Assembly: GCA_046484585.1 (NCBI GenBank)
Contig: JAWOIQ010000210.1
Span: forward strand, 12,238-76,237
Reading direction: 5' to 3'
Length of the DNA stretch: 64,000 bases
DNA from: Desulfurivibrionaceae bacterium
Lineage (GTDB): Bacteria; Desulfobacterota; Desulfobulbia; Desulfobulbales; JAGXFP01
Part shown: positions 12,001 through 61,082 of the stretch, piece by piece
Position numbering within the stretch: the first letter of the stretch is position 1
Layout: each line of letters starts with the position of its first letter
Position numbers and translations under genes: made by a program
Notes under the pieces: model-generated
What the model was told of the DNA's origin: nothing
Seen by the model: only the letters and a program-made list of their open reading frames with translations
Databases searched by the model: none

Positions 12001-15000
12001 CTGGCTCTGCTGGGTAATATTGCTTCGACAGGCCAGTTCAGGAGTTTGGGCGTTATTAATAAGTCTGGTTTGCTCGAAGCCGCAACCGCCGGCGACCTGC
12101 TGGCCCTTGTCGCCCCGGAAAATGGGGTGCCCCGATTGGCCGTGTATGATGTCGACCTCCCTCAAGATAATGATGACAATCTAAAACTTAACCGGATTAG
12201 CGCGATTGCGAGTAGCAGCAGTTTTATCGGCGTTAATAATGTTCGCTTTTCAGGGGACATGGTTGAATGGACAAATGGCGCATACCATAATGCGCATATT
12301 CCTCTGCGGAACACCTTATTCCTTAAACCGGAAAGACGAATTGCCGGCGAGAATGATTTGATCGCCCTCCAGGTCGGCGGAGGTCTCCTCGGCTGGGAAG
12401 ATGTGTCTCTGGATGTTCGCGATTCAGCCGATCATCTATTGGCCGGGGATACTAAACTGGTCGGACGAGATCTGAATTTCCGGGTGATTGGCGATCGTTA
12501 TCTTACCGGCGAGCCCTATGAGGTTTCATTGTTTAATCCACCCCGGCCGCTCATCAATGGCGGTGCGGTAAACGTTGACCTTCCCTGGATAGTGCAAGGG
12601 GCGGAAATTTTTGGATTAACCCCCTTTGAGATAAGGCGATTAGAGCCGGCAACAGTTTTAACCGATCGGGATATTCAGTTCACGGTCAGGGGCACTCAGC
12701 TTGATCAGGCCCAATTTGTTCGACTTAATGATCTGGATATTTCCGACTGGACGGTCAGTGACGGCGGCACCGAACTGTATTTTACGGAAAAGATATCAGC
12801 TGAAGGGTTTTACAGCCTTACGGTCGGGCAAAATGGTCAGTTAGCCTCACTGCCCGTGGCATTGGTAGCGACCGAAGGTCTCGGAATCGACTCTGTTACA
12901 ACAAACAATGCCCGTGGTTCAGATTTTGTCAGTGATTCCGGCGGCACGTCAATAACACTTACCGGCAGGGGATTCCAAGGAAAGATTCGTGTCCATTGGT
13001 TTGAAGCCGAGAATGGTTTTATTCCCAACGATTCCAATGAAATCCAATCGATACAATATGGTGACGGGACTATCAGGTTCAACGCGCCTCGAACAACTGA
13101 TGGCAAGAGATACCGGATTGTTGTTCAAAAAGCGGAAACCGATGAGGAGGTATATGTCGATACTTTGTTGACCGGCGTAGATGATACCAGTCCGAAGTTG
13201 CAGGCGAAACCTCAGATGTTGAATTATACCAACCCGCTTCGTTTAACTTTCAGTGAAGGGGTTTCGGCCGGTGGTTTCAAGGTGGTCAGTAAATATGAAG
13301 ACTATAGCGGCAGTCCCGAGCAGGATGTTTCCAGCCTGTTCGAATTGGAGGTCACCGGCAATATCATAACTTTGCGCCTCAAATTAGGGGTTTCTCTCGA
13401 GCATAACAGGATTTATGAGATCAGCATCAATGATATCCGGGATCTGCATGGCAATATTACAGCAGATTCAATCCTATACCTTTTGAGTAATGGCAACTAC
13501 CAAAATACCTTTAGATCTGAAGATACACTGGCGCCGCGCAACATCACCATGGCGCGCGTAAATGACGGCGCGCCTGTTACCGCGGCAATGTTATTGACCA
13601 AGGGGAGGGAATACGGCTTTAAGGTCAGTGCAATTGACAACAGGGGGGCGGTTAGCTATGAAGCCCGGGTCTCCACGGACGGCGGCATTAGTTTCGGTCC
13701 ACCGCAAAGTTTGGCAGGTGGTCTGCTCTCGCTGCCTATTTATGAAGCAAATACAGCTATTGCTTTTAAAGTAAAGGCAATTGATGAAAGCCAGAATTCA
13801 TTTGAACAACGCTTTGATGCGGCTGTACGTGCTCCTGAAATTAATTTTAGCGCCTTTTACAATGTCCCCGCCGAAGTCGAGGAAATGACCCGGGCCGATA
13901 TCTGTGTTGATTTGTCCGGCGATACGGACCTGCTCATTTCGGCCGAAATGCAGGTTTTCGATAAAACTTACGATACCGAACTGGTTCATCGCGGGGTTGA
14001 CGGCGCCAAGGCGTGCATGTCTTACCTCAACCCCAGAATCAAGGATATCGAGGCGAATTACGGCAACCAGGTGCCGGTGCGGGTCCGGGTCATGTATAAG
14101 TTTACCGGTAAGAAATATACCGATTACTCCTATACCCTCTACCTGGACAAAACCCCGCCTGATGTGGCTATCGTTTCACCGCCGGATGGATCAATCATAC
14201 CCCTGAATGAAAAAACTAATGTTCTGATTAAGTCTTTTGACCGGTATGGGATAGAAAAAGTTGAAGTGGCGGTCAATGACGGCGACTGGCAGGAATTAGC
14301 AGATCCCAATCTGTTCGAATTGACCGCTACGGATCTTGATCCGGTGACAATCAAGGTCCGGGCTTTCGATCCTAACGGCAATAGCAGTATAGATTCAACC
14401 GTAAGTCCAACTTCAATTACCGTCCGACCTACTGATAAGAATGAGGGAGAACCCGGGTTAAAACTAATTGCCCCCGGGGACGGATCCAAGTTCCATGAGG
14501 GAGAGAAAATCACGCTGGAAGTTGTCATGCGCGATCTTCCCTCTGCCGAACTCTTCATGGATATCGGCGGCGATGAGAATAATTCGGCCAATCCGGATCC
14601 AATTACCATTGTTCGGGATGAGACCGGTCTCGAGCGATTCTCCTATGAAGTTACATTGCCTCGGGTGGAAGAAAATATCGTCGTGGTCCTGCGTCTGCAA
14701 GCAGGAAGCCTCTTCGCACGCCGCTTTATCAATATTCTCCAGGATTCAGGCATCGAAGAAGAGTTGAATATGACGGTTCTGCCGCCCAAGACCGTTCTGA
14801 CCGGCACGCAGCTTTGGGTGCAGGCGGGATCTCCTCCTTTAATGACCGATTTCTCGGATGATTCCGAAGTTGAAGTTGAAGATCCGGCGCCAAACGGCGA
14901 CATAACACGGATCACAATAGATGCCGGTCCTCAAATGGTTGGGATGAATGATGCCGGTGATGTCAGTCAGCTACATGGTGTCCTGCGCGACCGTTCCGGT

Positions 15001-18000
15001 AATGAGAAGCGGAGTGATGTAAGTATCGCAAAGACCGCTTATTTGAGTGAGGAGGCTGTTAATCTCTACACCTCTCCTAGTGCTGATGATGTTACAGGCG
15101 ATATGGCGGTTGTTCCCGCCCTTTCGGGGAGCGGTAATGACCTGTTTTGGGTAATAAACAGGCGAAATGGCGGCTATATATTACGGAATCAGGCCAAGGT
15201 TCTGCACACCGAGTTTAAAGGGTCCCTTGAGCAGCTTAAATTTACCGGCAGCGGCCTGGCGGCTCAGGAGAGGGACGGAAGTAATCGTACTCTAATGTAC
15301 TGGCCAATAATTGGCGGTGAACTGGGTGCTGCTGTAAAACAAAGAATATTGGGCGATTTTGTCGGAGTCAGCGGCAATATTCTGTTTACCCGCCATGGCA
15401 ATCTTTTTGATGGTTATCAGGTGATCGATCGGGGTTTTGTCCCCTTTGTCGGCCGCTTGATCAATGAGCCTGTTCGTGATGCCATGGTGGATGCCGATCG
15501 GCTCTTTATCCTAACCGAGTCCGGTTTGGCTGTGTATAGAGTCTCCGGCGACTCGTTTTATGAGTTGCAGGAAGTATTCTATACGGGCGTGGCGGATGCG
15601 GAGGAGTTCTTGGTTAAGGGTAACCGCCTGATCACCTGGCGGGAGAACTTTGTTACCAGCTACCAACTCATGGAAGATGGCTCTTTAATTGAGTTGAGCA
15701 CCATTGATTGTGGCGGACCGGTCTTACACGCCTTTGCGGATGGCGAATTGATTTGGCTGCTGACCGATGGACCTTTTGCCGATCAAACCTGGCGGGCCTA
15801 TCGTGATGATGAGCTTGTGGGGCTATTGGCTGACGGCTCCGATCGGTTGGCATTTGGCGGCAACAAGCTTTACAGCAGAATGACGGGAGATAAATCCGAC
15901 GCGATAGTAGTTCGTTCCACAATCGCAGTTTCGCCGGCAGCCATATTTGCTCCGACCTTAATTGAGACACCGCAGGGGATGTTGGTTGGTAATGTCATCG
16001 AGGCGGATACCATAGGTGGCGAGAGCATTGCGTTCTTTAACGATGCAGGTCAATTTTTACCAGCGCAACCTGTCTGGCGAGAAGGGAAGCAACAGTGGTT
16101 TATATCGCGGATTGGGCTGGATTCGTCAAACATAAAAATTGTCAGAACAGACCGGGGAGGAAGGACCGATCAAAGTGTCCTGAATATAAACACTGCCTCT
16201 AGTACTGTTATTGATCGATTATTGCCTGAAGACAACACCTCATTAGTCAATGGTGGATGGGTTCCGGCGACTTTGATCTATTCCGCCGACACCAGGATCG
16301 ATGAGGCCAAGGTGCTATTTAGCGGGCAGGAACGCCCGGTCACTAACAGTTCCGAGCTCCGATCCTTCCAGTGGCTTGATATCCCAGAGTCTGGGGCCGA
16401 TGCAGTCTTAAATGTGGTTGTTGACGCTTTTGAGATGGCTGCTCACAATCTGACTTTTGTAGACAACGATCCGCAACTCGAGGGAATAAATCTTTTTCAA
16501 CCGGCACCTAACGAGTCTTTTACCGAAGGGGCCATGCTCTCGGTCGAATTCAGGGCTTCACAAGAAAGCGGTCTTGCTTTCAAATATACTGAAATCTGCC
16601 TGCTTGACAGTAATAGAAAGTTGCTCGACCGACGTTTACTGGCAGAGTCGAGGGGAGTAGTGGACTTGCGTTTGCCGGACATTGAACAGCGTGAGAATAT
16701 ATTTGTCCGGGTTCGGGCCTATTATGGTCCCAATTTTTATTATAGCGAGGCTGAAACGGGAATTCGGCTCTTCCCGGAGTTGAGGATTCCGCCCGTGGAA
16801 ATACAAGGTGTCGGCAACCGGATCATGATCGGATCGTTGCTTGAGGCCTGGATCGGCTCGCAAATTCCTGAAGGCATGGGAGCGAGGCTCGCTCTTTCGG
16901 ATGGGCAGGGTAATCTTCTTGTGGCCGGAGAACAGCGGGTTAGCCATCTTGTCTCCCTTGATACCCAAGAGCTTGTCTTGACCGCCACGGTCTCCGACGG
17001 TTTGGGCAATAGCCAGACAATCGCCAAACAGATCCATGTAATCAACCCCTTTGAATTATCGGAATTGGCCGCCACCCGGAAATTCCAGAAAGGTTTGCCA
17101 TCCGTAGGCAACGCGTGGTTTGCCTCCGGCCGCTCACTGTATGACATCGATAACAATCTGCAAGTAAGCTTCGATACATATATCAATGCCTTGGATTTCC
17201 TGGGCGACAGGCTGATTCTTTCATTGAAGGATATCGGGCTGGTAATTGTTGATCCCACAAATGATTTCCTGGAATTAAGCCGGATGCCCATGAGCGGCGA
17301 GGTAACGGATCTTGCCGTGTCCGCGGACCGGCTTTTGGCGGTGATCGCGGGGGAATTACATGGGTTTGCAATTTCAGGCAATGCTCTCGAAAAAGTAAAG
17401 ACCGTGCCGGTAAGCGGCATAGTACGGGAGGTCCGTTCCAGAAAAGGCCGATTTGTAGTGATCACCGGCGAAGAAATGCTGCTGGTAAATGAAGAATTCA
17501 ATGTGAATTCCCGTCAGACCGGCAACTTCACCGCCGTGGCTCAATCATCCGGAAACCTCTTTGTCTCAGAAACCACCGGCAAGCTTCGGGTCATCAGCGA
17601 CGATTTTGCCTGGGTCAAACAGTTTGAGTTGGATGTTCAGGCAGACAGGTTGTTGATGTTGCAAGGATATCTGCTGGCTTTATCCGCGGACACGGGAAAA
17701 ATAAAGGTTCTTGATATATTTGATCCGCGCAACCCGGAAGTGATAGGCTCTTTTTCCGTTTCGCTTGGCAGTGATGCGGGAGAAGCCATCATCAGTGAAG
17801 GCAAACTGTGGATCGGCGGCGAAAACAGCCGTGTTTTCGCCCTTACCCGTAAAGAGAGAACTCCTGCAATACTTTACGAAAGCGTAAGGCCGCGCGGTAA
17901 TGTCCGCGATGTAAGTATTGGTGAAGGAAGTTACCTGGCGGCCGCGGATTCATACGGCGCCATTAATCTGGAACGGATCACCGATGGATGGCAAGAGGCA

Positions 18001-21000
18001 GTTTATCCCGGTGCTTACACTTCATCTATCACTAAAGCAGCGGCATACGATACCGCTGAATATTTCCTGAAGTATGACCAGCAAGCGGTAGTTGCCCCTG
18101 ATGAAAATAAAAAATCGGAAGTTGTTATTTTCAAAGGGGCTCCGTTCGAACATATTGCCGTCTCCGAGAGCAAAGTCGTTGCCGCTGCCGGTCCCGACCT
18201 TTACATCAGAAAGCGCGATCTCTCGGGAGAAGTGAGCATATTTTCAATAAGTCAGGGCAATAACATCATTGCCTTGGCAGCCGGCGGAGAAACTATTCTG
18301 GCCAGTACCGATAACGGTACGGTTTACCGGGTGGATGTTGGGGAATTCCCCATAAACATCAATAATGTAGCGATCAGGCCGGTCATCAACAGTGGTGAAC
18401 CGTTACGTCTTATCGTTTCCGACGGAGATTATCTTTGTTACGCCGATGGGATTAACCTGCATCGCCTCCGCCTGGTAGATCAAAACGATGATTATATCCC
18501 CATGCCCGGGAATATCGATGCCATAACTTTTGCGCCCGGTGCGGTTTGGGTTGCGGTGGGCGCCGATGTATACCGGATTTCAACCGATAGTGCCTGGCAG
18601 CAACTCCCGGTTGCCGTTCTCACCGCCAAACACAAAGTTACCTCCCTTGCGGTACGCCATAACAAACTGCTTATTGGGCAGGGTGCATACGGACTGGCTT
18701 TGCACGATCTGTCCCTGCTGGCGATGGATTCATCTCCGGCCCTGATAAAACCCAGATTTGACAGGGTTTTTGTCCAAACCGAAACAATTCCTTTACAATT
18801 ATTATCAGCCGAAGGCATCAACAGCGTTAGATACCGGGTTAATGGTAAAATTGTTGCGGCCACCAGTGTCCAGCCTTTTGTTACCAGTGTTTCCGTGCCG
18901 GCAAATTTACGTAACGGCCAACCTTTCGAAATTGCCGCGGAGATCGAAACGGTCTGGGGGGAGGTCCATTCGTCCTCCGCTCGCCGGGTGATGCTCCAGG
19001 GCGAAGGTCTGCCGGTCAATCTGTTTACCGTAGAATTGCTCACCGACAATGAATATTTGCCCCGGCCTCTCGAAATGCGGGCTCTGGTTCATAACAGCAG
19101 TCAGCCGGTGTCCCAGGTTGAGTTTTATTATAGCGAAAGCATGGCCGGGTCCTATGAGTTGATCGGTACCCATTATGGTCCCGAGTATGTACTTGATAAG
19201 AATTTCGCCCTTGAAGTTGATGGCGATTATCTCAAGGTGCGCGCCATTGATGTCTATGGCAACTTCACGGAATCGGTGCCGCAGAGGCTGAATCGGTTGA
19301 CCGACCCATTCAGGCCCAGGGCGGAGATCAATATTGATGGCCGGCTGATTAACGGCCATCCCGTTATCGGCCAACCTTATAATGTAGTCGTTACTTCTAG
19401 CGATACCGGTAGCGGGGTGGAGATGGTCCTGTTGTACCGTGACGGACTTATTGTCGGCGCGGCCTTCGGCGGTAATGATTTGATATATGCGGAGGCAAAT
19501 CCCCAATCCGGTGCAACTTATACATACACGGTTATCGCGCAGGACGGGGCCGATAATCTTCGAGAGGTTGTCAAGTCGGTCACGGTTGAAACGGATAATT
19601 TCCCCGATCCCCCGGTAATCGATGGTGAGACAAGCGTCAGGGAGCAGGACGGTTTTGCTGTCCGGATCGATGCGACTGACGATTTGGGAATAAGTCGGAT
19701 CGATGTGCTCTGGAACGGGCAGACGATAAGCCGTGAATTCAGCGGAGAAAACCGAACCGAGAGCATCTCTTCCCTGGTCATCCCTGATTTGAGGACTCTG
19801 AGATTGGGTAACCAGGTCACTGAACCATTGGAGGTCACGGTTACCGATATCCGGGGACAGCGGAGCAGCACGGTCAAGGATATAACCGTAATCCCCGATC
19901 TCGCCCCCGATTGGAACTCGCTGGTAATATCCACTCCCGAATATGGTTTCTTCGGCTCATTGGTCAGGGCGGAGATTTCAGGCTTTTCCTCGGCGGATGA
20001 CGGGAATATGCAAGATCTAGCTGTCTCCGTGATTGATGTTACAACAGGATCGCCGAGTGAAATCGAGAGACGGCAAATTACCGGTGACAGTATGGGCTTT
20101 TCGATGCGGACCCAACCCGATGATAATAATGGGGATATATTCCGCTTTAAATTCAGGTTGATGGACGGCTTGGGCCAAATGGCCGAAAGCGGGGTCCACA
20201 CCGTATCGTTAAGTCAGATCCCCAATGAGATCCGTTTCGTCGCCGGAGGTGATCCGGCTGTCAATCCCGATTTCGCTAAAGTCGCCGAGCAGATGCCGTT
20301 GCGGGTCCTGGTAACTGATTCGGCCTCGCGTCCGGTACCGGAGCAGGAAGTCAACTGGTTCATAAAGTCAGGGCCGGGCGTCAATGATGAAATGCTTCTC
20401 GGCTCATCGCTTACCGATCAAAACGGCTACGCGATCTTCGATTTCGATACCGATCGGGCTGCCGGGGAATACAGGGTCCAGGCCTCCCTGGCTATCTTTG
20501 ACAGCGTTTACGGCATCCACGATTTTGAACTGTTGACCGGGGAGATTCAGCATCTGGTCTTCGATCATGTTTCCCCGGTTGTTGCCGGCCATGTATTCAC
20601 TTTCGATCTCCAGGCTCTGGACAGCGGCAATAACCCGGTCTATACGGCCAATGAGGAAATAGTCACCCTGACCATGCCTGATCCCGGTTTCAACTTCGGG
20701 TTTGCCGATAATCTGACCATTACCAGGATGTTGAATAATGAAGGCTATTATGTTGAACAGGCAGACATTAGATTGATTAACGGCAAGGCTACCGTCCCGG
20801 TTTCAGCCGCCGAAAAAGTGAACGATTATCCGGTCGCAATCAGCTTTGCCGACGGCAGCGGCCTTTTCGCCATGTACGATCATGACGGTCTGGAGGTAAC
20901 GCCGCTTGAGGAAAGTGATGTAATCAACGTTCGGGTTCTTCCCGAGGCGCCTCATGGCCTGGCTTTTTCACAAAAGGGCATGACCAATAAGGAACTCGGT

Positions 21001-24000
21001 GATCCCGAACGTCTTGAAGTCGGCGAAACATCAACCGTCGAGTTGATCTTGACCGACCGTTACGGCAACCTTGTCACGACCGTGTCTGATTCTTTTGGAG
21101 TTCGAAGTAATGCAAACTTCTTGATCGATGTTTCGTTGTCCGGAAACGCCCAGAGCGAAGGAAACAGCGGAACCGTTACCTTGGATATGCAGCGCGGCAT
21201 GGCCGAACTGCCGGTAACCGACGATACCGTCGAAGAGGTTGCGATTTCCGTGGCCGCTGTCGATCCTCTCCCGGAATCACTGAATGTCCAGGCGAGCATT
21301 AATCTTAACTTCCTGAAGATGCTGCCGGCAATCAGTCAAACCGAGTTCGCTTCGGTGACCGATAATATCAATCCGCCGCTGGTCCTTAATTTCACGGAAG
21401 CAGTGGAGGAGACCGGCAGTGCGCCTGTATCGGTCAAACTTGACGGGACGGTTGTCGACGGTTCCGTTGCGGTCGACGGTGCCACGGTTTCCTTTACCGC
21501 TGCAAACAATATCGCCTTAAATAGCTGCTACACTGTCGATACGACGGGATCCACCCTGGTTGGGGTGGCGGCGGAAGATAAGCCGCTGGTGCAGAATCTT
21601 ACAGTCTGCAGCCCTCTGGTTGCAATACCGCAACAGGGACAGCCCTATCTTTTGGCCGGAACCGAAAAGGCAATCGATCTCCTTTTCGGAGATGGAGTCG
21701 ATCGGCAACAGATCACTTCGGGCGAAGCTAATCTCGATGGCGTAACCTATCCCTTTGCCTGGGAGACCGGTGCCTTCACGACTCCGGACTTCTCCGGCAG
21801 TGTTGAAGACGGGACGCTTGCTTCCCTGACCCTTGCGGGGGACTATTCAGGCGCTTCGCTTCGGGTGGCAAATTCCATTACCATCCGTATCCTGCTTTCC
21901 GGTCATGATTTTGACGGCGACGGTCTCTTAAATGAATTGGAGATCAACCTCGGTCTTGATCCGACTAAAATGGATAGCGACGGCGATGGTATTGTCGACG
22001 GCGATGAGGACCAGGATGGCGACGGCCTGACCAATGTCGAGGAATTGGCCCTGGGTACCGCTTTGGATAACAGCGATTCGGATGGCGACGGCCTCTCCGA
22101 TTATGAGGAGGTCAAGCAATACCAGACCGATCCTTTGGCAGTTGATAGTGACAATGATGGTGTTGATGACGGTCTCGAGGTAAAGACCAACAATGATCCC
22201 AATAATGCAGGTGGGGATGTCGATCTCGCAGCCTGGGTAACCGGCGTTACTGTAGCCCCGGAAACGATCGAGGTGGCCTACTCACGAGTAAGTCCGCCCG
22301 TTGTCAATCTCCAGGTCACTGCCGACCTGACTGTGGACGGCGCAACCTATCAGATCGACGTAACCGAAGAGCGTTTCGGTACAACCTACAGCAGTGGTGA
22401 TAGTGCTATTGTTCAACCTTTGACGGATGGAGCTTTCCAGGTTGTAAGTGATGGTGAAACGACTATTTCTGCGTCCTTGGCCGGTTTTGCTGCAAGTTCT
22501 CCTCTAAGCGTCTTACCGTCTCACGAAGAGGATATACCTGTCAGACTTGCTCCGACTAGTACACCGCAAAAACTCTACGCTTCTTCCGATACTGGCGGGG
22601 TGTGGCTTGAAGTGACAAATGCTGTGCCGTTTATCATCAAAAAAATCGCCGTGGATGGGATAAATATTCCCATAGTTAAGCAGGACGGAATTTTGGCTGA
22701 TTACAGTGAGCTGCCTGTCTCGACCGATCCGGCATTGCCGGGTGTCGTGGCTCGGTTGCTAAGTCCCGCAAGCAGTTCGGAACTGGTGTCCGGGGATTTT
22801 CAGGGAAGTTATGAAGCATACTTGCCGGCGGATTTCAGTCTGGGGGCTGAAATAACAGTTGCAGAAATAAATGAAGCTGTGGATCTTCCCGCCTTGCTCT
22901 TAGTTTCATTTACCCAGGGTGTTCCGGCAGATATTCAGGGCATTATAAGTGTGACAATGGATACTCTGGGGACTTATGAAAATACAGTTGTGGAAGTCCT
23001 GGTTCCGGTTGAACCGGATCCGCAAACTGTTGCCATTGTTGATCCGGCTATACCTGAAAGCCTCGATATGCAAGTTGGTGAGGCACTCGATATTCCACTC
23101 GTAGTTCAGGATCCTGGATTCAATAATGTTGAAGTTCAGTATTTGCTCGATGGGGAACCCTTGCAGCAGAAGGTTGTTCCACCCTATCCAGCCATTGGGT
23201 TGGGAGTGGAGAGAAAGGTGAATCCTAACGTTGTTGAGACATTCTATGATCCAAATCCCGCCACTGTCTTTAATAGTGAAACTTTAATCCCTGAATATAA
23301 CAGCGGTCTCAATTTTAATAACTGGGGAGCCCTTGTTGAATGGTCCTTCCTGAGGTTTGAGATCGAGGAAGCCGGTTATTACAAGATTGGTTTCAACAAT
23401 TCTCAGGTAGCGGTAAAAGTCTACGGGGTTATCGCATCGGGAGAGTTCGATTGGGGCCAGGTTCTATTAAATGAGACTTATGGCTATTCCCATTCTCTTT
23501 TTCTGCCCGCCGGTAATTATGTAATTGCGGTTGCCCCCCGTTTTTCAACCTATGATTACCAGCATTGGCCCCCGAACAATTTCCCTGAGCCTTTTATAGC
23601 ATGGGGCGGTGTAATGGGTACCATGGGGGATCAGTCGATAACGATCCTAATCGATGCCGACCCTGCCGGCGGCACTTCGGGTGGCGAAGCTTCCAGCAAT
23701 ATAGACCCTGTCCGGTTGGAACAGGCCCAGAAAATCTTTAAACGCTATCTGCCCAGGCGTAAGGTCGATTTGAATCTTTCTTATCAGGAAATAAACCGGG
23801 TTTATATCTTACGTGATCGGGATATAGGTAGTCATACCTTAACCGTTAAAGTCCTTGAACATACCTTTGATGGCGTGCGGGAGTCGATAGCAAGAGACTA
23901 TAACCTTAATGTGACCGAAGCTGCTTCCGCCCCTGCTTGCAGCTCCATTTCAGTGGAAACCGTAAAGCCGCAAGAGGGTGAGGTTCTGTATGTCCGGAAT

Positions 24001-27000
24001 TCCGATAACCTTGCCACGGGCGATTTTACCAATTTCACCCCGGTAACGATTAAGGCCAGTTCTCCTTCGGGTATTGCATCCGTTGAGTGGAGCAATGCCC
24101 CGATCACCTATAATTTGCAGTTGCCAGAGACCTTTCCGGTTGGTTTGCCGATGCTCGAACTCGGTGAATATATCACAGCGTCAGATGATCAATACAAAAT
24201 TGATAAATCGATTGGAGGCGGTTCTGAGGTAAGAGCTGAATTTAAGAAGCCATTCGGCCTTCATGTCGATAGGCAAGGTACTTATCGGTTTACGGTTGAC
24301 CACCAGAACAGCGATGTGACCAGCAAATTGATAATTTATAGTATAGCCGGCTGGACAAATGAAGTAGCGATGGTTGAAGGGGGCAACGTCTACGAAATAG
24401 ATATAGCCGCAGGCGATTACTATCTATACGTCGCAACCGAATATGCGGGAGATGGATCATCATCGCTGGGTATCTCTAACAGGCTTCCCGTATATCAATC
24501 ATTCGAGGCCGCAGTCGAAAGGGATTATAGTGATTATGCAAATTTTAAGATCATGTTGGAAGAAGTTTCGGTCTCTCCAGAGCAGTATTATCTGGAAGGA
24601 AGAAGTTCACACTTGGGATATAGATTAGATACAGTAGATAATGCCTATTTTACCTTGGCCAATCCTGCCGCTTATCTCGCGATTCAGCGCACCGGCCTGA
24701 CGGAACTGGAATTTACCGTCACCAGTAATTGCGGAGCGGTCAGCACCCATGTTGTTCCCATCGAGATCGTTCCTGATCCCGCACCGCAAATCTCCATTCA
24801 GAACAGTAGTAGTTTTGAGAGGATGGCTCTTGGCGAGACGAAGACTTTGCAAGTTCTTATCGAGGATGCCGGGCGGGATGTGTCGAATATCGGCGCTTTC
24901 CTCTTGCCGAGAGATTGGGCTCCTGAGAACGAAAATTATGTGGGGCAGGAGATTCAGCAGGCGGGTATGCTTTTGTCCGGTTATGCTCTGGCCGATTTTG
25001 ATATGGCACAATCCCTCGCCAAACCATGGTCACAGGAGCAAGATTCATTCAGCTTCCGGCTGCCGACCTATACCCCACCTGATGTCGCTTTTGGTGAGTA
25101 TGATCTTCGTATTCTTGTAAGGGAGGAGAATGGAGATGTCTACTTATCTGAACCGCTTAAGACCAAGATAGGTCCCAGCAGTATGCCGCCGCACTTGTTT
25201 GTGGAGTCTTTGCCGGCGCATGTTCCTGCCGGTGAGGCTATTCCCGTTTCGTTCAATGCTTCAAAATTGGGCAGCATAAATAATGTAACGGTAACTGCTA
25301 CCGGCTCTGTGCCAGGGGGATTTTTCATTGAACAGATCTTTGGTGACGACGGTTATTCTCTTGAAGGTAAGATCCTGGTCCCTGTAGCTGAATATGCAAT
25401 TGAGGGGGACAGTGTCAATATTACAGTAACCGCAGAAGACAGTAATGGAGTTAAGACATCCGCCGATTTTACAGTAACGGTTGGCTTCTGGGGGCAGGAA
25501 ACTCTTGTGATCGACATCGATACCACGGCTGATAATTCTTTCAGCTTCAATAATGTTGTAGTCAGAAACGGAACCGTTCTAACCATCCTGGATCCAAGCA
25601 TTAAATTGAACAGTATCGACATTGAGAGTGGTAGTGAAGTAGTGATTCCTGGGACGACCACTCATGAACAGTCAATTGCGCCAAACTTTCCTTTTAATTT
25701 GCGTGGAACAGGCAAAGTGTATAGTTACTATTATAGAAGTTACTCTTGGAGTACCCCAACGTATAGTTATACCACGGTTCCTAGTGGATATTTCACAATT
25801 CCGGAGACAGGGGAATATACAATCGAATTTACCAGTTACTTTGATGCGGAAATCTATCTTTACCGTGATGATGGCTCTCTCGATAGTTCTGATCTTATTC
25901 TTCATAATGATAATGCTTCCGGATCTCTGTTTCAGATAGAAATCGAACTGACTGCTGGAAACTATTTTCTTGCCGTAGGAGCATCTCAGGTCACGCTCAG
26001 TGAGATTATAAGCGGCAAAAGCTATAGTCCGGGACTGGAGGGCGGTAATTTCACATATGCCGTTTTTTCGGCAAGCACTTCGGCAAGCACTTCGGATTTT
26101 CCTTACGACACATCCACCTTTGAGCTTAAAGATCATTTGCGGATCGATCAAGGGGCAATATTGACCGTTGAACCACCTCCGGCCTCATTCAATCGGAATG
26201 GAATGGATGCCGATGGTGGCGTTCATGGCGGTGATTCCGATAATTTTGAAGCTTATGGTGATTTCCGCAAGCCCCGGTTTCCCGGCGGATCGTCCGGGGT
26301 AAGAGAATATTTTGGCAGCACCAGTTGGAATTCGTGGCCTGGAGCTGCAGGCGGAGGTTCCTTGCATATTGCAGTACCTGTTCTGAATTTGAACGGAACA
26401 ATTGCCGCCGATGGCCGGAGTTTGAGCGCTGATGATACGTTCAGCTTTAACAATGGTGTCAGCTACCTTGGCGGAGGTGCCGGCGGCAGCATCCAGGTTG
26501 AGGCCAGTGTTATTGACGGCAGCGGCACAATTCGGGCAAACGGCGGTGATGTGTACAACTACTATCAAAGATCAGGGGCTGGGGGGCGTGTTGCAGTTTA
26601 CTACGATACATATGATGGCGGTTCGATTTATGAAGGATTGACCCTTGAAGCAAAGGCCGGTACAGCGATGGCAGCACATTATCGAAATGGTGCGGGAACA
26701 GTCTTTACGAAGCATGTGGCTCAACAGTATGGCGAGTTGCATATCGACAATGGCATGGATGCGGTCGGCAGTGGCACTACTACTCTGCGGTCGATTGGCA
26801 AGCACATCATAGCAGATGTCCGTCCTACTGCGGTGGGAAACAGATACCGGATATCTATTGATGATCCAAACGGGTTTTGGGAAGAATACGAACCTGTCTT
26901 CTGGCAGCTTGGCGCCCGGGGGCTTTTCGTCAGTCTTGACGCCGAAAATATCGATGCGCCGTTGTATGAAGTCATCGATAACGGCCGGGATTATCTTGTA

Positions 27001-30000
27001 GTCGAATCTACTGAAGATTTGACCGGTGTGGTCGGTAATACAATGCAGGGCGTAATTCGCCTTGACAAATTGGTAACAACGGAAGGAGTTCGGCTCAAGA
27101 CCCTGGATCGTATCCATGCCGATACTTATCAGATTTCTGATTACGCCAATGTGAGGGGGGTCGCGGACCTTGACACGACCGAGTGGATAAATCTTAATGA
27201 TTTCTCCTTGGCAGACGATTCGGTCCTCTATACCCAAAATATAGAAGCATCAAGTATGACCCTCACCAACGGTTCATTGTACTCAATAGGTGAGATTGTT
27301 GTCTCCGGTGATGTGAATGTGACCGGGGTCGGGGGCAACAAGTTGATGGCAAAGAAGCTGACCGTTGATGGTGATGTGGATATTGTGGACGCTTCTCTGG
27401 AATTAGGGATTGACGAGAAGTTCTCTGTGCAAGGCAATATGTCTATTCGCGGAGAAGCTGCCGATGGCTCTATTGTCACTGTTCCGGAAGCTGATATCAG
27501 CAGTAAATTTATTTATACGCTGGATTTGAATGTTGCCGGGCAGCTCAACATAACTGCTTATTCTAAGATTGACCTTAATGGCAAAGGCTATCCCGGAAGA
27601 TATAAGGTCGGTTTTATCCCTTACTATGACGAAATTGCCGACCACCATATTGGTGATTTTACTGAGGTTAGTTTTGCCGGAGCGGGAAGCGGAAAAGAAA
27701 GCGGAGCAAGTTATGCCGGCGGCGGTTTGTTGCGGGTCAAGGCTGGAGATATGACGGTCGATGGTGTGGTTCAAGCCAATGGGGTGGGATATAGATATTC
27801 AGCAGCCGGCGGCGGTATCCATTTGGATGTCTCTTCACTGAGTGGTACAGGTCAGATTATGGCTAATGGCGGTTTGGCTAGTCATTATCTGGATAACTCT
27901 TCTGGTCCCGGCGGGAGCATTAGCGTCGTTTATGATAATATTTCCTTTAATCAGACCAACTTTCAAGCCCATAGTGGAGTAATCTATAATAGTACAACAC
28001 GTAACCACGTTAGGGGGGCGGCTGGAACGGTTTATTTAAAAGAGAGAATGGCAGAAGGCGGTCATCTCATTGTGGATGGTGACGTTGGTAATGGAATTCT
28101 CTCACCCTCGTTTAATACGGAACTTAGAAGTGTCGGTCAGCATCAAATTACCGAACTTCTGAGTCGTGGTAACGGAATCTGGCGGATTAATCTGGCGGAA
28201 AATCTACCGTTGACTGCTAACAGTAGTGATGGTCTAGGTTTAATTGGTCTTGTTGTCGATCTGAATGCTGCCGATTATGAAGGTCCATTTTATACGATTA
28301 CCAATAACGGAGATGATTGGCTGGAAATCGATACAGGAGGAACTTCCTTATCTGCCGGTTTTGTTGGACAGGAGCTAATCGGCGTTACCAACTTAAGTGG
28401 ATTGACTCTTAAAAATGGCGCTAAACTCAAAACGCTGGATCGCTTAGTCATTTCCGATTTGAGCAAAGTTGAGGTTGATGGGAATACTGAGTTAGTCTTT
28501 GGTCAAATGGAAGGCTTGGAAGATGTGAGCTGGCCGCAAAACTATAAACTTATTGTCTTAGGAGACCAACAGGTCTCCTCGTTAGTAATTACAGATATGT
28601 CGTTGACTGTAGCTGGACAGCTTAGTGTTACGGAAGATTTTGAAATTTTTGGGACAAATTCGAATTTCAGTGCAGATGAAGTTGTCGTCGGAGGCAGCTT
28701 CAACATTGACGGTTCAACCGCAACCGTTAACGATAGCCTCGATGTCGCAGGTAATTTGACGGTTGCAACAGATTCGATGCTTAACACGGATAAGATCGCT
28801 GTTGCCGGTAATTTCCTTATTGATAGTGCAACTGTGGTTTCCTCTGATATCAGAGTAACCGGTGAATCCGGCTATTTGAAGGTGCTTGGTTCCGGTAAAC
28901 TTACAGTTCCCGATCCTGAGGATGATAAAATCTATCCTCTCAATTTAGAAGTTACGGGAGAGTTGTATATCGATGCTAATGCCGCCATTGACCTTGATGG
29001 TAAAGGCTATCCTGAAGGTCATACAGTAGATTTCATTTCTAATACTAACACAGGCCAAGGAGGTAGTTATATAGGTCACGGTGGAGGGTATTCACAATCA
29101 GCTAGTGATTTAACTTATGGAGACTTCGCTGAGGCAAGTTTTGCCGGATCTGGGAATACGTATAGTTCTTCTAGTGTTATAAAATCTGGTGGTGGCTTGG
29201 TGCGAATTAAAACCAAAGAAATGGCCGTCTTTGGAGTGATTACAGCAAATGGTTTGAGTGATTATACATCCACAGGGGCAGGTGGCGGCATTCATTTAGA
29301 GGTTTCCTCTCTGTCAGGCAATGGAATGATAACAGCTAATGGCGGATATCCTAAATATGGTTGGTATAAATCCGAGGTGAAAACGGGATCTGGTGGGATT
29401 ATCAGTGTCGTTTACGATAATATCTCTTTCGATCAGGCAAATATTCAAGCATATGGTGGAGGTTACACGAATTCAAATGATCCCCAGGCAGTTGGCGGGG
29501 CCGGTACCGTTTATTTAAAAGAAAGGGTGACGGATGGCGGCCATCTTGTTGTTGACGGCGGCTACGGGTTAAATACTGAGCAATGGACTGAATTGAGAAG
29601 TATAGGCCAGCATAAGATTAGTGGCTTGACAGACCTCGGGGATGGAACTTGGCGGATTGATTTGGCGGATGACGGACAGCTGCCGCTTGCCAATAGAATC
29701 GACGGTCTTGGCATGCGGGGCCTTGTTGTCGATCTGGATGCTGCCGATTACGAGGGGCCGTTCTATACGATCACCGATAGCGGCGATGATTGGCTGGTTA
29801 TCGATACTGCCGGCGGGTCTTTACCTGATACCATTATTGGTAACGACCTGATCGGAGTTATCAATCTAAGCGGATTGACCCTTGCAAACAGCGCTCGTCT
29901 CAAGACTTCGGATCGTTTGGTAATACCAGATCCCGGGAAAGTGGAGATTTCTGAAGGTACCAAGCTGGTATTCGGACAGATGCCTGGCTGGGATAAAGTT

Positions 30001-33000
30001 CTTTGGCCTCAGAATTATGAACTTAATCTTACGGCTGATCAACATGTCGCTTTCTTGTCACTCATAGATGTCGCATTGAATATTGACGGTCAGCTTGTTG
30101 TCGCAGGTGATTTAGAGGCGGTAGGGATAGGTGCGAATATCAGTGCGGATGGGATAAATGTTGGCGGCAGTTGCTTTATCGATGGTGCGACCATGAACGT
30201 TAATGGTTCTCTTAACGTTGTCGACGAACTTGCCTTGGCTGGTGCCGGTAGCATTCTTCGTGCCGATGAGATCGCTGTCGGCGGTAGCTTCCTTGTAGAC
30301 GATGCGACAATTATTACCTCTGATATCAAGGTAACCGGCTACTTTGGTTCCCTGAAAGTGATGGGTGCAGGTAAGATTACGGTCCCTGATCCGGAAGAAG
30401 ACATTGTTTATCCGCTTCTTCTGGATGTAGCAGGGGAGGTTTATGTCGGGCCGGATGCCAGCATAGATCTTGACGGCAAGGGATATCCCGGAAGGCGTAC
30501 GGTTAATTTTATCTCTACATATGGTAGTGCCGGCGGCAGTCATAGTGGCCCAGGAGGATATTATACTTACTATTCATCTAGCTCCTTGGATAGCGACTCA
30601 AATTACGGTGATTTCACCGAGGCCCGCTTTGCCGGAGCTGGAAGCCAAAATTACAGTGGAGCCGCTGGCGGTGGTTTGGTACGGATTAAGGCTGGTTATC
30701 TGACTCTCGATGGTGTGATTCAAGCCAATGGAGCACCATTTTACTATTCAGCAGCCGGTGGTGGTATCCATCTGGATGTCGGCTCTCTGACTGGTCTTGG
30801 TCAGATTATGGCTAATGGTGGTGTCAACTCGGCTTATTCTGGTTCTGGCGGAATCGTTAGTGTTGTTTACGACAATATTTCCTTTGATCAGACTGCCATT
30901 CAAGCCTATAGCGGTACTCGCAACTCTTATTTAAATGTTTTTTCCCGACAAGGGGCGTCCGGCACTGTTTATTTGAAGGAGAGGAATGTGGAAGGCGGCC
31001 ATCTTGTTGTTGATGGTGGTCTTGGTGGTGACACAGATAATTGGACGGAGTTGAGGAGTGTCGGTCAGCATCAAATCAGCGGACTTACAGATCTCGGTGA
31101 CGGGACCTGGCGGGTTGGCCTAGCCTTGGAAAGTCTGCCGCCGACTGTCAATAGGATTGACAATCTTGGCTTGCGGGGCCTTGTTGTTGATTTAAACGCT
31201 GCCGATGACGAAGGTCCATTCTACACCATCACCGATAGTGGCGATAATTGGCTGGTAATTGATACCGACGGCACGTTATTGCCCGATAGCCTCATTGGTA
31301 ATAATCTGATCGGGGTTACCCATTTAAGCGGATTGACTCTTAAGAATGGCGCTCAACTCAAAACACTGGATCGTTTGGTGATTTCCGATCCGAATAAAGT
31401 GGAGATTGCTGAGTATACAAAACTAACCGTCGGGCAAATGGTGGGCTGGGAAGAAATGACCTGGCCTCAGAACTATGAAATTAATCTGACCGGTGACCAA
31501 GAGGTTTCCTCTCTGGCAATTACTGATACGTCGGTGACCATTAACGGTCGGCTTGATGTTATCGGCGACTTTGCCGCGGGAGCAAATACTGTGATCAGCG
31601 CAAATGAGATCGTTGTTGGCGGTAATTGCCTTATTGATGGTGCGACCGTTATTACTACTGATATCAAGTTAACCGGGGAGCTTGGAAACCTGGAAGTAAT
31701 AGGCACAGGTAAAATTACAGTCCCCGATCCTGAAGAAACTATACTGTATCCGCTTAATTTGGAGGTCGGCGGAGAGTTGTATGTTGGACCGGATGCCAGC
31801 ATAGATCTTAATGGCAAAGGGTATCCGAAGGGGAAAACAGTTGGTTTTCAGTCTCATTCTACTGCTGGCAGTCATGGGGGGATTGGTAGTTATGGTTCAG
31901 ATGGTCGAACTTATGGAAATTATGAGGATGCCGGATTTGCGGGTGCTGGAGGGTATAATTATTCCAATTCACACAATTATAACGGCGGTGGGTTAGTTCG
32001 GATCAAGGCTGGAGACCTGACTGTCGATGGTGCAATCCAGGCTAACGGGGCTTATCTGAATTATTACAGTTCAGGAGCTGGCGGTGGTATCCATCTGGAT
32101 ATCGGGTCTCTCTCGGGAGTTGGTCAGATTCTGGCCAATGGTGGTACTGCAAGAGGCTCCACTGGTTCTGGTGGGCGTATAAGCATAGTCTATGATGAGC
32201 TGGTGTTTGATTTAACAAATATCCAGGCAACAGGTGGTAGACGAACCTACTACGACCCCGGTGATATTCGGGGCCAGGGTGCAGCCGGGACGGTTTATCT
32301 CAAGGAGCGACGCGCAGACACCGGGCATCTGGTTGTTGATAACGGCACCGCAGGGCAAACAGATCAGTGGACTCCTCTTCGGAGTATCGGTCAACAGGAA
32401 ATTATCGCGATTGAACAGCTTGTCGATGGCACCTGGCGGATTGAGGTTGACGGTACTCCTTGGCTATCAGTCCATGATTCCCTTGATCAACTCGGATTAA
32501 TCGGCTTGAGCGTCGATTTGGATTCTTCTGATGAAATAGGTCCATTTTATCCGGTTATTGATAACGGTGATAACTGGTTGTTGATCGAAACGGCAGGTGA
32601 TGTATTAACAGGTCTTGTTGGTAATGATTTGATCGGGGTCACCGAGCTTTCGGCTTTATCTGTAAACAACGGTGCGCGCCTGAAGACTTCTGACCGTCTG
32701 GTAATCAGCAATCTTGACAATCTGAATCTTGATGGCGCTTCCGGAATTGGTTTTGGACAATTTCAGGGATTGGAGACTTACCCCTGGCCCAGGGGCATAT
32801 CATTTATCATAGATGCGGATCAGCAAGTCCAGTCTTTAAATATTGTAGATGGTTCAAATATCGTTTTTAACCGTTCCTTAACGGTAGCTGGTAATTTGAC
32901 GGTGAGCGGTACGGCCTCATTAACTGCCAGTCCTCTTATTGTAGCAGGCAATATGATAGTGAGCGGTACAACCGACCTAACTGCCACATCTGTCACTGTG

Positions 33001-35907: not shown

Positions 35908-35910
35908 AAA

Positions 35911-35986
35911 ACAGTTCAGGGCTCTGAGTTTAGGGTTTAAAACCAGGAACTAGAAACCTGCACTCAGAACTTTGAACTCTGAACTC
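35911..35986. repeat. Heptamer-family imperfect inverted repeat (hairpin) directly after the giant ORF stop
   Basis: GTTCAGGGCTCTGAGTTTAGGGTTT (35914-35938) versus AAACCTGCACTCAGAACTTTGAAC (35954-35977), which is partly complementary. It uses AGTTCNG/CNGAACT-type units. Confidence 0.6.
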
Positions 35987-36022
35987 AATACTAAATAACT
36001 AAACAAGAGGGGGAAAATATTC

Positions 36023-36838
36023 ATGAGTTTGCGCTTTTTGGGTGTTACGTTTTTAACTGTTATTTTGCTTGGCGGCTGCGGAGGTAATGGGGAAAACATT
36101 GCCAAATTGAACGGCAAGAACATCAGCAAGGCCGAGTTTGAGTCATTTCTGAAGATTAAAAGGGTGCCCGCCGACAACGACAAGAAGCGCGAGCGTCTTC
36201 TCGACCAGTATCTGGAGCGGGAGGCCTTGGCCACGGTCATTGAACAACAGGAATTACTCGATAAACAGATGATTCAGGTCGAGTTGAATGAATTCCGCAA
36301 AGAGATGCTGATCAGCCGTTATTTCGAGAAGTTCCTCAAAGATAAGGTGAGCGACCAGGCTGTGCGCAATTATTACAACACCAATGGCGCCGAATATGAG
36401 CAGAAAAAGGCCCATGCCGCCCATATCCTGATTCGGATTAATAAGCGGATGAGCGAGCCGGAAAGGCAGGCCAAATTGACCACCGCCCAGGATGCTTATT
36501 CACAGGTCAAATCCGGTAAGGAATTTGCCGAGATCGCCAAGAGATATTCCGAAGACAGAATTTCCGCCGAGAAGGGCGGCGATTTGGGCTGGATCAAGGA
36601 AGGCAGTATCGACAAACGTTTCTCGAAGACCATATTTGAAGGCCTCAAGGAAGGCGAGGTCTCGGAACCGTTTGAAACACCTTTTGGGTTTCACATCGTT
36701 AAGATCCTGGAAGCGCCGCAGGTGGTTAAACAACCGTTTGAAGCCGTTTCGGGAGACATCCGTTATCAACTTCGCAGTCAGGCGAAGAAGGCGGAACTGG
36801 AACGGTTAAAAGCGGAGATTGAGATAGAGAAGCTTTGA
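36023..36838 (+). CDS. Lipoprotein parvulin-type peptidyl-prolyl cis-trans isomerase (PpiC/PrsA/SurA-like chaperone)
   Basis: ATG follows a GAGGGGG Shine-Dalgarno-like sequence. The signal peptide has lipobox LLGGC. The C-terminal rotamase motif reads AHILI...GGDLGWIKEGSIDKRFSKTIFEGLKEGEVSEPFETPFGFHIVKILE. Confidence 0.85.
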   Translation: MSLRFLGVTFLTVILLGGCGGNGENIAKLNGKNISKAEFESFLKIKRVPADNDKKRERLLDQYLEREALATVIEQQELLDKQMIQVELNEFRKEMLISRYFEKFLKDKVSDQAVRNYYNTNGAEYEQKKAHAAHILIRINKRMSEPERQAKLTTAQDAYSQVKSGKEFAEIAKRYSEDRISAEKGGDLGWIKEGSIDKRFSKTIFEGLKEGEVSEPFETPFGFHIVKILEAPQVVKQPFEAVSGDIRYQLRSQAKKAELERLKAEIEIEKL

Positions 36839-42896: not shown

Positions 42897-42900
42897 CAAA

Positions 42901-43030
42901 AGTTCCTAGTTCCTAGTTCCTGGTTTCTAGTTCAGGGTTAAAAGCCCGAAACTCGAAACCAGAAACTCGAAACCAGAAATTCGAAACCAGAAATTCGAAA
43001 CCAGAAACCAGAAACCAGAAACCAGAAACT
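42901..43030. repeat. Heptamer / 14-mer inverted tandem-repeat element
   Basis: (AGTTCCT)x3 occupies 42901-42921, followed by GGTTTCTAGTTCAGGGTT. The A-rich arm has four 14-mers CGAAACCAGAAA(C/T)(T/C) at 42954-43009. These overlap (AACCAGA)x4 at 42999-43026. Confidence 0.9.
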
Positions 43031-43039
43031 AATTTGACA

Positions 43040-43441
43040 ATGGCGACTATTACGCGATTTGAAGATATTGATGCCTGGCAAAAAGCTCGTGAGCTTACTG
43101 CTGCTATTTATAGAGAGAGTCGTACTGGGGCTTTTGCGAAAGATTTTGGTTTGCGCGATCAAATTTGTCGGGCTGTCGTTTCGGTCATGTCGAATATTGC
43201 GGAAGGATTTGATCGGGACGGGAATAGAGAGTTCATGAATTTTCTTTCTATCGCTAAAGGTTCTGCCGCGGAGGTGACCTCTCAGCTCTATATTGCAAAA
43301 GATATCGGCTACATAGATGATGAGAGGTTTGACGAATTATACAAGCTTGCCAAGGAAGTAGGGTCATTGATCGGAGGTTTCATGAAATATCTGGGAAATT
43401 CAAAAATGGCCGGAAACAAATTCAAACACTCAAAAAAATGA
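43040..43441 (+). CDS. Four-helix-bundle protein of the 23S rRNA-intervening-sequence (S23p) / DGR Avd-like family
   Basis: MATITRFEDIDAWQKARELTAAIY...DQICRAVVSVMSNIAEGFDR...EFMNFLSIAKGSAAEVTSQLYIAKDIGYI is the family signature (W.ka..l......p..e...l..Q..ra..Si..NIAEG..r....ef..fl.iA.gS..E....l). I prefer ATG 43040 over the track's TTG 43034. Confidence 0.85.
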   Translation: MATITRFEDIDAWQKARELTAAIYRESRTGAFAKDFGLRDQICRAVVSVMSNIAEGFDRDGNREFMNFLSIAKGSAAEVTSQLYIAKDIGYIDDERFDELYKLAKEVGSLIGGFMKYLGNSKMAGNKFKHSKK

Positions 43442-43446
43442 AGAAA

Positions 43447-43570
43447 GTTTTGAGTTCCGAGTTCAGGAACCTAAAACCAGGAACTAGGAACTAGAAACCA
43501 GAAGTCCGAAACCAGAAGTCCGAAACCAGAAGTCCGAAACCCGGAACCAGAAACCAGGAACTAGAAACAC
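43447..43570. repeat. Heptamer / 14-mer inverted tandem-repeat element
   Basis: GTTTTGAGTTCCGAGTTCAGGAACC is followed by AAACCAGGAACTAGGAACTAG. Three perfect 14-mers AAACCAGAAGTCCG occupy 43495-43536. AACCAGAAACCAGGAACTAGAAAC follows them. Confidence 0.9.
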
Positions 43571-60600: not shown

Positions 60601-61082
60601 TTTTCCTGCGCGGCTGAGAGGATAAGAAAGTCTGAGGTTTTACCTGTTTCGGGCAGCCGGGGAAGCGTGGATTCTGGAACGCCACCAAGCTGTCAGGTCA
60701 TCTCTTCTGTTTTTTTTAACCCTTTCCGGGAAAAAAATACAGCAATAAATAAATCGTCCGCACCGCAGGCCGATGCCTTGCATCTCCGGCACCTTGTAAT
60801 CGCTTACCGGCTGAGAGATTGGCCAATCCTGGGCGGCTAATCCCGTGATCGGTTACGTGGGGGTTGGGAAAGCCCATGGAGGAGGATGGAAATGTCGGCA
60901 GGAATTACGGAGCCGGTATGCGAAAAAGCAGGAGAGCTGGTCGAAAATCAATGGCGCGGCCCGCTTCGGTTTTTGGCGCTTCTCGTCTCGGAGAGGGGGT
61001 GAGATGAATGGCATGTCGGCGGGGAAAGTTGTTTCCGGCAAGTTCGATCCGCTATCCGCGGCGGAGGGCGAGATCGGGCGGC

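Follow-up and report, generated by a model that had tools for sequence, protein, structure and literature searches.

A solenoid–barrel repeat unit in a giant bacterial protein, and the widespread, undescribed family to which it belongs

Giant surface proteins built from beta-solenoids are already a familiar theme. The locus described here raises the question whether a long run of glycine-rich repeats at the end of one giant gene belongs to any known repeat family and, if not, what kind of structure it might form. The locus lies in a 64,000-nucleotide stretch of DNA from a Desulfurivibrionaceae bacterium (contig JAWOIQ010000210.1, positions 12,238 to 76,237 of the forward strand), which we refer to as the window. 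Frame 1 of the plus strand is open from base 1 of the window to a stop codon at 35905-35907, one stop in 11,969 codons. The C-terminal 9.7 kb of this gene, which exceeds 36 kb with the part outside the window, encode an array of 3,240 residues. An earlier reading of the letters alone (the sequence-only reading) had divided this array into seven tandem modules of no recognised family. The array is best seen as part of a widespread, so far undescribed family of structural repeats, whose putative partnership with foldases is conserved and deserves testing. Elsewhere in the giant protein Pfam finds TIG, Big_5, LVIVD, Big_7, TSP3_bac and weak Big_1 domains, all upstream of the array. The main features of the gene are as follows.

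1..35907, plus strand: giant open reading frame (ORF), >11,968 amino acids (aa), 5' end outside the window
25750..26040, plus strand: PA14/GLEYA-like beta-sandwich domain directly before module M0 (PA14 E 2.8e-4, 21.1 bits)
26188..27567, plus strand: module M0, 460 aa, divergent, without the GKGYP anchor and with a short lead-in
27568..28986, plus strand: module M1, 473 aa
28987..30462, plus strand: module M2, 492 aa
30463..31800, plus strand: module M3, 446 aa
31801..33201, plus strand: module M4, 467 aa
33202..34524, plus strand: module M5, 441 aa
34525..35904, plus strand: module M6, 460 aa, terminal, its barrel split by an insert and no lead-in after it
35197..35560, plus strand: PA14-like insert of ~120 aa splitting the M6 barrel
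35824..35904, plus strand: C-terminal tail of 27 aa after the last barrel, ending SELPVQQ

Modules, natural phase and predicted fold

The anchor I[DN][LM][DN]GKGYP occurs in frame at nucleotides 27568, 28987, 30463, 31801, 33202 and 34525. Its periods of 1419, 1476, 1338, 1401 and 1323 nucleotides are identical to those given in the sequence-only reading, and the motifs quoted there are all found in the modules. A profile built from M1-M5 recovers all seven in-frame modules (441-492 aa) and finds none elsewhere in the 11,968 aa. M1-M5 score ~640-790 bits each and M0 scores 148 bits (independent E-value 4e-46). The matches to M3 and M5 are reported in two pieces each, as is that to M6, where an insert of ~120 aa lies between the pieces. 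Protein identity sorts the modules into the groups proposed earlier: M1-M3 are 55-63% identical to one another, M4 and M5 are 55% identical, and M0 and M6 are 30-37% identical to all others. The GC skew across the array (26000-36000) is 0.15-0.20, compared with 0.02-0.12 elsewhere in the giant gene; the rise is probably due to the many GGN glycine codons and not to replication.

The division into modules needs one correction. Each module had been given three parts: a glycine-rich part thought to be a beta-helix, a compact conserved part and a run of short V.G.L.V strands. All three parts are real, but the third part of one module and the first part of the next form one continuous solenoid, which the earlier phase cuts in two. 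The natural unit runs from one ...DRLV to the next ...DRLV. Two stretches in this phase were modelled with AlphaFold2.

31381..32703, plus strand: natural-phase unit U4, comprising lead-in turns, glycine-rich loop, four glycine-capped rungs and beta-barrel
31381..34113, plus strand: two natural-phase units, U4 and U5, modelled jointly

The U4 model, made from an alignment of 26 units from the giant protein and its relatives, has a predicted local distance difference test score (pLDDT) of 92.3 and a predicted template modelling score (pTM) of 0.92. Its strand pattern is that of a confidently predicted beta-solenoid, in agreement with the beta-helix proposed earlier. In the DSSP assignment, residues 32-142 are short regular strands and correspond to the V.G.L.V part. 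Residues 143-204 are well ordered with no regular secondary structure, and hold the GKGYP turn and a loop rich in Gly, Tyr and Ser (~60 aa). Residues 205-320 form four longer strand pairs, each closing in a glycine turn, with the rung motifs GGGLVRI...ANG, GAGGGIHL...ANGG, GSGGRISVVYD...GG and GAAGTVYLK...VDNG. Residues 338-429 form a separate all-beta domain. The compact conserved part thus turns out to be a small beta-barrel of ~100 aa, which is six-stranded in the predicted structure and from which the chain would enter the next lead-in directly. Across the family the conserved residues are mainly glycines and hydrophobic ladder positions.

The two-unit model, whose alignment held only 10 sequences, has a pLDDT of 83.9 (81-93 at the junction) and a pTM of 0.74. 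It supports, at the level of a prediction, a defined relative arrangement of consecutive units. Its lead-in is very regular, with three short strands per ~19-20 aa over about five turns. Lead-ins within the array differ in length by whole turns of ~19-20 aa, those of M1 and M2 having about two more turns than that of M3 (28600-28990 and 30080-30460 compared with 31540-31800; repeat family D9, spacings of 114/117 nucleotides). Length therefore varies at the level of the rung as well as at that of the module.

The domain directly before M0 matches PA14 (PF07691) over positions 40-76 of 147, with 21.1 bits against a cut-off of 24 (E 2.8e-4). The insert in the M6 barrel is homologous to this domain (BLASTP E 9e-12) and itself has no Pfam PA14 match. 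Beyond the last barrel, the short tail looks like a truncated lead-in, as judged from its sequence. A recognisable sorting signal in the tail was rejected, since the tail can be aligned to the beginning of an internal lead-in and matched no sorting domain of Pfam or NCBIfam (a dedicated predictor was not used).

Curated resources hold no significant counterpart of the module, and the earlier statement that no family could be recognised stands for Pfam, NCBIfam, PHROGs, PDB sequences and Foldseek searches of PDB and BFVD. Pfam-A gave no match on the 3,268-aa C-terminal region, nor on single modules or their sub-parts at E<=10; among its families, neither ALK-type nor other glycine-rich domains matched. 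NCBIfam gave none on the C-terminal region (E<=1) and PHROGs none. With a single unit as query, nothing significant was found among PDB sequences, the best being LpxD at E 0.18, and a 26-sequence profile returned only chance matches to tau and LIM. Searching both models with Foldseek against PDB and BFVD, a library of viral structures, yielded nothing at E<=1e-3. The barrel-sized matches (79-111 aligned columns) were to ribosomal protein chains, F1/V1-ATPase subunits and a siderophore-interacting protein, with target-normalised template modelling scores (TM-scores) of 0.40-0.56 for the small ribosomal chains and ~0.1-0.2 for larger targets.

Relatives, copy number and selection

A word-indexed search returned 15, then 69 proteins, all of them 'hypothetical'. 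The exhaustive search used A2, a profile of ~440 positions in the order ID[LV]xGKGY turn, four glycine-capped rungs, barrel and lead-in, against 1.84 billion cluster representatives. It found 9,691 clusters at E<=1e-3, of which 2,940 reached E<=1e-30, and in many the match extended over positions 1-441; the seven copies of the window match the family profile by construction, since it was built from them. Instead of an annotated repeat family, the search thus uncovers a large and widespread unnamed one. The unit is not peculiar to the window gene but a member of this family.

The best 150 of the 9,691 are mostly 1,000-7,400 aa long and have 3-16 matched stretches each, many of which cover the whole profile. 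By local counting, these 150 proteins carry 3-12 core units each, with periods of ~263-550 aa, and barrels are present in 105. Their array is usually C-terminal and closes ~24 aa past the last barrel; the median remainder is 46 aa, and in many proteins it is 19-28 aa and ends in S[VT]LP. The family has three grades: core only (~265 aa), core and barrel (~310-370 aa), and core, barrel and long lead-in (~430-550 aa), to which the window belongs. Of 110 relatives with barrels, 18 have a split one, which is the last barrel in 14 of these 18.

Planctomycetota, Verrucomicrobiota, Actinobacteria, Lentisphaerae and several Proteobacteria are among the named sources. At the level of genomic loci, the closest relatives come from Gammaproteobacteria (sediment metagenome-assembled genomes, Thiohalomonadaceae, Sedimenticola and Microbulbifer). 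Complete relatives begin with a Sec-type signal peptide followed by a conserved N-terminal domain. The pattern C..N.LNRTVQ...G.F..PNVPS..GQVRARATC follows the signal peptide in P0072, P0073, P0077, P0085, P0089, P0117 and P0224. This domain matched no Pfam family in the relatives scanned, and may be an anchor or a secretion module.

One relative comes from a cultured organism with a complete genome. WP_421654135.1 of Microbulbifer harenosus CGMCC 1.13584 is a protein of 7,294 aa annotated 'PA14 domain-containing protein', with a Sec-type signal and 14 core-and-barrel modules spanning aa 928-7271. Its modules are ~30% identical to those of the window, a figure taken from P0075, a 4,434-aa partial protein in the same 90%-identity cluster. 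Like the window protein, it is a family member with PA14 (here a full match), LVIVD, Big_7 and TSP3 domains and a lipoprotein parvulin gene directly downstream. It differs in having 14 modules instead of seven, an unsplit last barrel and one neighbouring peptidyl-prolyl isomerase (PPIase) instead of two. The large Ig/Glucodextran_B protein is encoded upstream of the giant gene in M. harenosus, whereas in the window it is downstream.

A much closer relative is the syntenic ortholog on metagenome contig L012 of the Joint Genome Institute (sample 3300037470), with ~85% DNA identity in the flanks. The ortholog has five modules where the window has seven, and one stretch of the window has no counterpart in it.

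~32346..35074, plus strand: stretch absent from L012, beginning at ~182 in M4 and ending at ~183 in M6, equal to exactly two module lengths

The last module of the ortholog is a composite. Its first 200 residues are 63% identical to the head of M4 and 43% to that of M6, whereas the rest is 68% identical to the remainder of M6 and 38% to that of M4. Such a hybrid carries the sequence signature expected of in-register unequal recombination. Deletion in the lineage of the ortholog is the more parsimonious direction, because the divergent head of M6 exists only in the window. Together with the identity groups, the five-module ortholog and its in-register junction support the stepwise internal duplication suggested earlier. 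Module number, which the sequence-only reading had wished to see compared among relatives, is 5, 7 and 14 in the three proteins examined closely. At the other end of the ortholog, there is an in-frame stop ~70 codons upstream of the called start of the giant frame (L012 1-275), and the DNA shared with the window starts at L012 position 124, ~50 codons ahead of the called start; the stop could be a contig-end artefact or mark a disrupted gene.

Between window and ortholog, the ratio of nonsynonymous to synonymous substitution rates (dN/dS) is 0.16-0.31 per module, ~0.25 in the glycine-rich and lead-in parts and 0.11 in the barrels, the most constrained part. Selection on the array is purifying throughout. 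The synonymous rate itself (dS) is 0.29 just upstream (20008-26187), 0.56-1.35 in the array and 0.62-0.87 in the downstream genes. The difference may stem from gene conversion within the array or from recent recombination in the upstream part. Orthology is blurred among M1-M3, with M3 the best match of all three corresponding ortholog modules.

Gene neighbourhood and proposed function

Three genes follow the giant gene on the same strand.

36023..36838, plus strand: parvulin-type PPIase, 271 aa, lipoprotein signal LLGGC; same position in L012, L001, L006 and L013
37049..37894, plus strand: second PPIase, SurA-N/Rotamase_2 type, 281 aa, lipoprotein signal ILPGC; kept in L012, L001 and L006
38106..42896, plus strand: Ig/dockerin/EF-hand/Glucodextran_B/CarboxypepD_reg protein, 1,596 aa

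A lipoprotein parvulin gene lies directly 3' of the giant gene in the window, in L012, in the distant gammaproteobacterial loci L001 and L006, and in the M. harenosus locus (L013). The modules of L001 and L006 are only 27-35% identical. The order giant gene, PPIase, PPIase and large repeat-rich partner is kept in L012, L001 and L006, and the partner has Glucodextran_B in two of these three. In most of the related loci examined, a large protein sharing some such domains, mainly Glucodextran_B, accompanies the giant gene.

Further observations concern the surroundings. Immediately 5' of the M. harenosus giant gene (L013 7505-9969) are three small genes for which no Pfam family is recorded. They include one for a 239-aa thioredoxin-type (Dsb-like) protein with a CPYC motif and one for a 168-aa protein whose long hydrophobic stretches suggest a membrane protein; these genes may be further folding or export accessories. 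Downstream in the window, 43583-51856 encodes an RHS protein of 2,757 aa with YD repeats, an RHS core and a Tle1-like phospholipase tip, and the 435-aa ORF at 53593-54900 has only an RHS-associated core and a partial Tle1, and looks like an orphan or displaced toxin-tip cassette. L012 has an extra 133-aa gene of the 23S_rRNA_IVP family (20306-20707) between its Ig/dockerin and RHS genes; in the corresponding gap of the window (~42900-43580) no ORF of >=150 aa is listed. PilZ and ComM/Mg-chelatase-like genes lie at 59068-61658, and a GspA (AAA_22 and C39-like)/GspB (T2SSB) pair at 61585-63881 on the minus strand. These genes would also be at home in a gammaproteobacterium. We do not regard the type II pair as a secretion system linked to the giant gene, since it is encoded on the other strand, ~26 kb away, and was not seen in the examined parts of the related loci.

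Based on these observations, we suggest with moderate confidence that the C-terminal 3,240 residues are the shaft of a giant exported adhesin-like surface fibre, with PA14-like domains flanking the array. The TIG, Big, LVIVD and TSP3 domains and the PA14-like flanks would be at home in an extracellular protein and count for such a fibre. The chain of each unit would pass through at least ~5 narrow solenoid turns, the IDLDGKGYP turn with its ~60-aa loop, four wider rungs and the barrel, and then enter the next lead-in. A run of seven units would make a long and mostly stiff rod, on which the barrels would be knobs at regular intervals. A solenoid turn rises by 4.8 Å; if each unit has ~11-12 turns, as counted from strands in the two-unit model, it would be roughly 5-6 nm long. 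The likely ligand-binding parts would be the PA14-like lectin-type domain before the array, at the base, and the one emerging from the split last barrel, at the tip. The latter may be analogous to RTX adhesins, whose ligand-binding domains emerge from split domains (PMC12077191). Export would be by Sec, as judged from the signal peptides of relatives because the N-terminus of the window gene lies outside the window. The two adjacent PrsA-like lipoproteins would serve as dedicated foldases of the giant protein. The fibre would have an adhesive or spacer role, with module number setting its reach.

Other explanations are less well supported than a fibre shaft. The modules could be glycan-processing units, in which the solenoid provides a lyase, hydrolase or glycan-binding groove and the barrel an accessory carbohydrate-binding domain, making the protein a multivalent degrader or capturer of polysaccharides of marine heterotrophs. 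Tailspike depolymerases, a capsule lyase and GH110 enzymes are indeed among the weak top Foldseek matches; however, these matches are not significant (E > 1e-3, TM-score 0.11-0.2, root-mean-square deviation >13 Å), and no glycoside hydrolase, lyase or carbohydrate-binding module was matched in Pfam or NCBIfam. The dockerin and Glucodextran_B domains of the neighbouring protein, the occurrence of PA14 domains in glycosidases and the presence of relatives in Microbulbifer, a known polysaccharide degrader, would all fit such a role. Against it, the conserved glycines and hydrophobic ladder show no obvious catalytic constellation, and the free variation in copy number, between 3 and 14, is of the kind usual for spacers. 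We consider glycan processing unlikely. A fibre tied to the downstream RHS/Tle1 genes, acting as a contact-dependent delivery or competition device whose shaft reaches or pierces neighbouring cells, seems to us very unlikely. The RHS/Tle1 protein and the orphan RHS-core/Tle1 fragment lie 7.7 kb downstream in an arrangement kept in L012, and giant C-terminal beta-helix filaments have been proposed for cell-cell transfer elsewhere (bioRxiv 10.64898/2026.03.19.712371). Yet the examined parts of L001, L006 and the M. harenosus locus have no RHS gene, and the C-terminal end of the giant protein, 27 aa past a barrel, carries no toxin domain.

Arrays of repeats are well known for being misassembled, and the count of seven could be an artefact, or the region decaying, unexpressed repetitive DNA. 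We give this almost no credence. DNA identity between copies is 60-83% over stretches of 26-300 nucleotides, with two short 26-nucleotide families at 88-92%; owing to this divergence, Tandem Repeats Finder detects no array of long period. Even the longest near-identical runs fall far below what could mislead an assembler, and at this low identity collapse or inflation of the array is therefore no concern. Furthermore, the 35.9 kb are free of stop codons, the dN/dS values given above were obtained against an independently assembled ortholog that has the same modules, and where the two loci differ in module number, the junction is a clean in-register hybrid.

Several points weigh against the proposed fibre shaft. 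The PA14 assignment in the giant protein is below the Pfam threshold, and the N-terminus, with any export signal or anchor, lies beyond the window. With a pTM of 0.74 and 10 aligned sequences, the two-unit model supports a fixed inter-unit geometry only moderately, and coaxial stacking and rod length are extrapolations from the models. No outer-membrane route was found, in that a type I secretion system (T1SS) signal, RTX repeats, a type V secretion system (T5SS) barrel and a recognised sorting tag were all missing. The foldase link is drawn from synteny, and M. harenosus has one PPIase, not two. Gene conversion may blur some of the 'ortholog' module pairs and so weaken the per-module dN/dS. 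The family as a whole is known from sequence and predicted structure alone.

A fibre shaft of this kind would also bear on export. More tentatively, and with considerable doubt, we propose that the array and its lipoprotein parvulins, joined at some loci by the Dsb-like protein and the Ig/Glucodextran_B partner, may represent an unrecognised Sec-dependent route for giant fibres in Gram-negative bacteria that is neither T1SS nor T5SS. If this is true, the 450-aa solenoid-barrel unit would be a new structural repeat class, with in-register recombination adjusting the number of copies.

The family matters for several reasons. Nearly ten thousand clusters carry a confidently foldable unit of ~450 residues for which we found no curated family, solved structure or paper. 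Many family proteins are among the largest encoded by bacteria, and the RefSeq name of such a protein comes only from the minor PA14 domain. Defining the unit would allow the annotation of 'dark' stretches in giant surface proteins of marine and sediment Gammaproteobacteria, Planctomycetota, Verrucomicrobiota and others. The unit is a ruler-like building block, changing in copy number between close relatives. The conserved adjacency of the parvulins offers a lead, open to testing, on the way in which Gram-negatives fold and export Sec-dependent proteins of 7,000 to >12,000 residues, and M. harenosus CGMCC 1.13584, cultured and with a complete genome, makes experiments feasible.

Comparison with known systems

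In its role, the array would resemble the shafts of known adhesins of the beta-helical or tandem-domain kind. The type V beta-helical adhesins (Ag43, SepA/EspC, IgA1 protease and FHA) are the weak top PDB matches of the two-unit model. Like the array, they use a long parallel beta-solenoid as an extended extracellular stalk, and their first export step depends on Sec, as proposed for the giant protein. In contrast to them, the giant protein has no C-terminal translocator barrel and ends 27 aa past a soluble barrel of ~100 aa, and its solenoid is interrupted every ~450 aa by this barrel, a globular domain, and by an ordered loop rich in glycine. Neither Pfam nor NCBIfam matched Fil_haemagg, PATR or pertactin repeats in the giant protein, and no Haemagg_act Pfam match was found in three complete relatives with Sec signals or in a fourth relative.

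The giant RTX adhesins (MpIBP, LapA, SiiE, FrhA and the Aeromonas RTX adhesin) share with the giant protein a size of >10,000 aa, tandem extenders, Ig-like domains, PA14-like lectin-type domains toward the C-terminal end, and TSP3 repeats, which are calcium-binding motifs. A further likeness is a ligand-binding domain emerging from a split host domain (PMC12077191). The window extender, however, is a 450-aa solenoid and barrel and not a ~100-aa bacterial immunoglobulin-like (BIg) domain. Relatives have N-terminal Sec signals instead of depending on T1SS, and parvulin lipoproteins adjoin the giant gene in place of T1SS genes, none of which was found downstream in the window, L012, L001, L006 or L013 (the upstream side of the window gene is not covered). 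We also rejected an RTX beta-roll: there are no GGxGxDxUx nonapeptides, and HemolysinCabind gave no match in aa 8701-11968 or in single modules to E<=10.

Phage tailspikes and pectate-lyase-fold beta-helices belong to the same general class of parallel beta-solenoids, and the Foldseek resemblance to them is weak. The window array differs in being a tandem of many modules; it has no Beta_helix/PbH1 or Pectate_lyase match in Pfam, no significant superposition, and no evidence of trimerisation or catalysis. A left-handed hexapeptide helix, which has 18 residues per turn, was tested as well: the lead-in has three strands per ~19-20 aa, no Hexapep match was found in Pfam, and LpxD at E 0.18 is the sole sequence echo. 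The architectures in the Omnitrophota 'giant genes' preprint and the Pseudoalteromonas BapP paper are unrelated. Another comparison is with Cag_663 and Cag_665 from the epibiont of 'Chlorochromatium aggregatum'. In these giant proteins a repetitive parallel beta-helix, for which a rigid filament is predicted, takes up thousands of residues at the C-terminal end; they are built from filamentous-haemagglutinin motifs recognised by InterPro, and T1SS export is proposed for them (bioRxiv 10.64898/2026.03.19.712371). The window module differs from them in carrying no such motif and in having a barrel intercalated in its solenoid.

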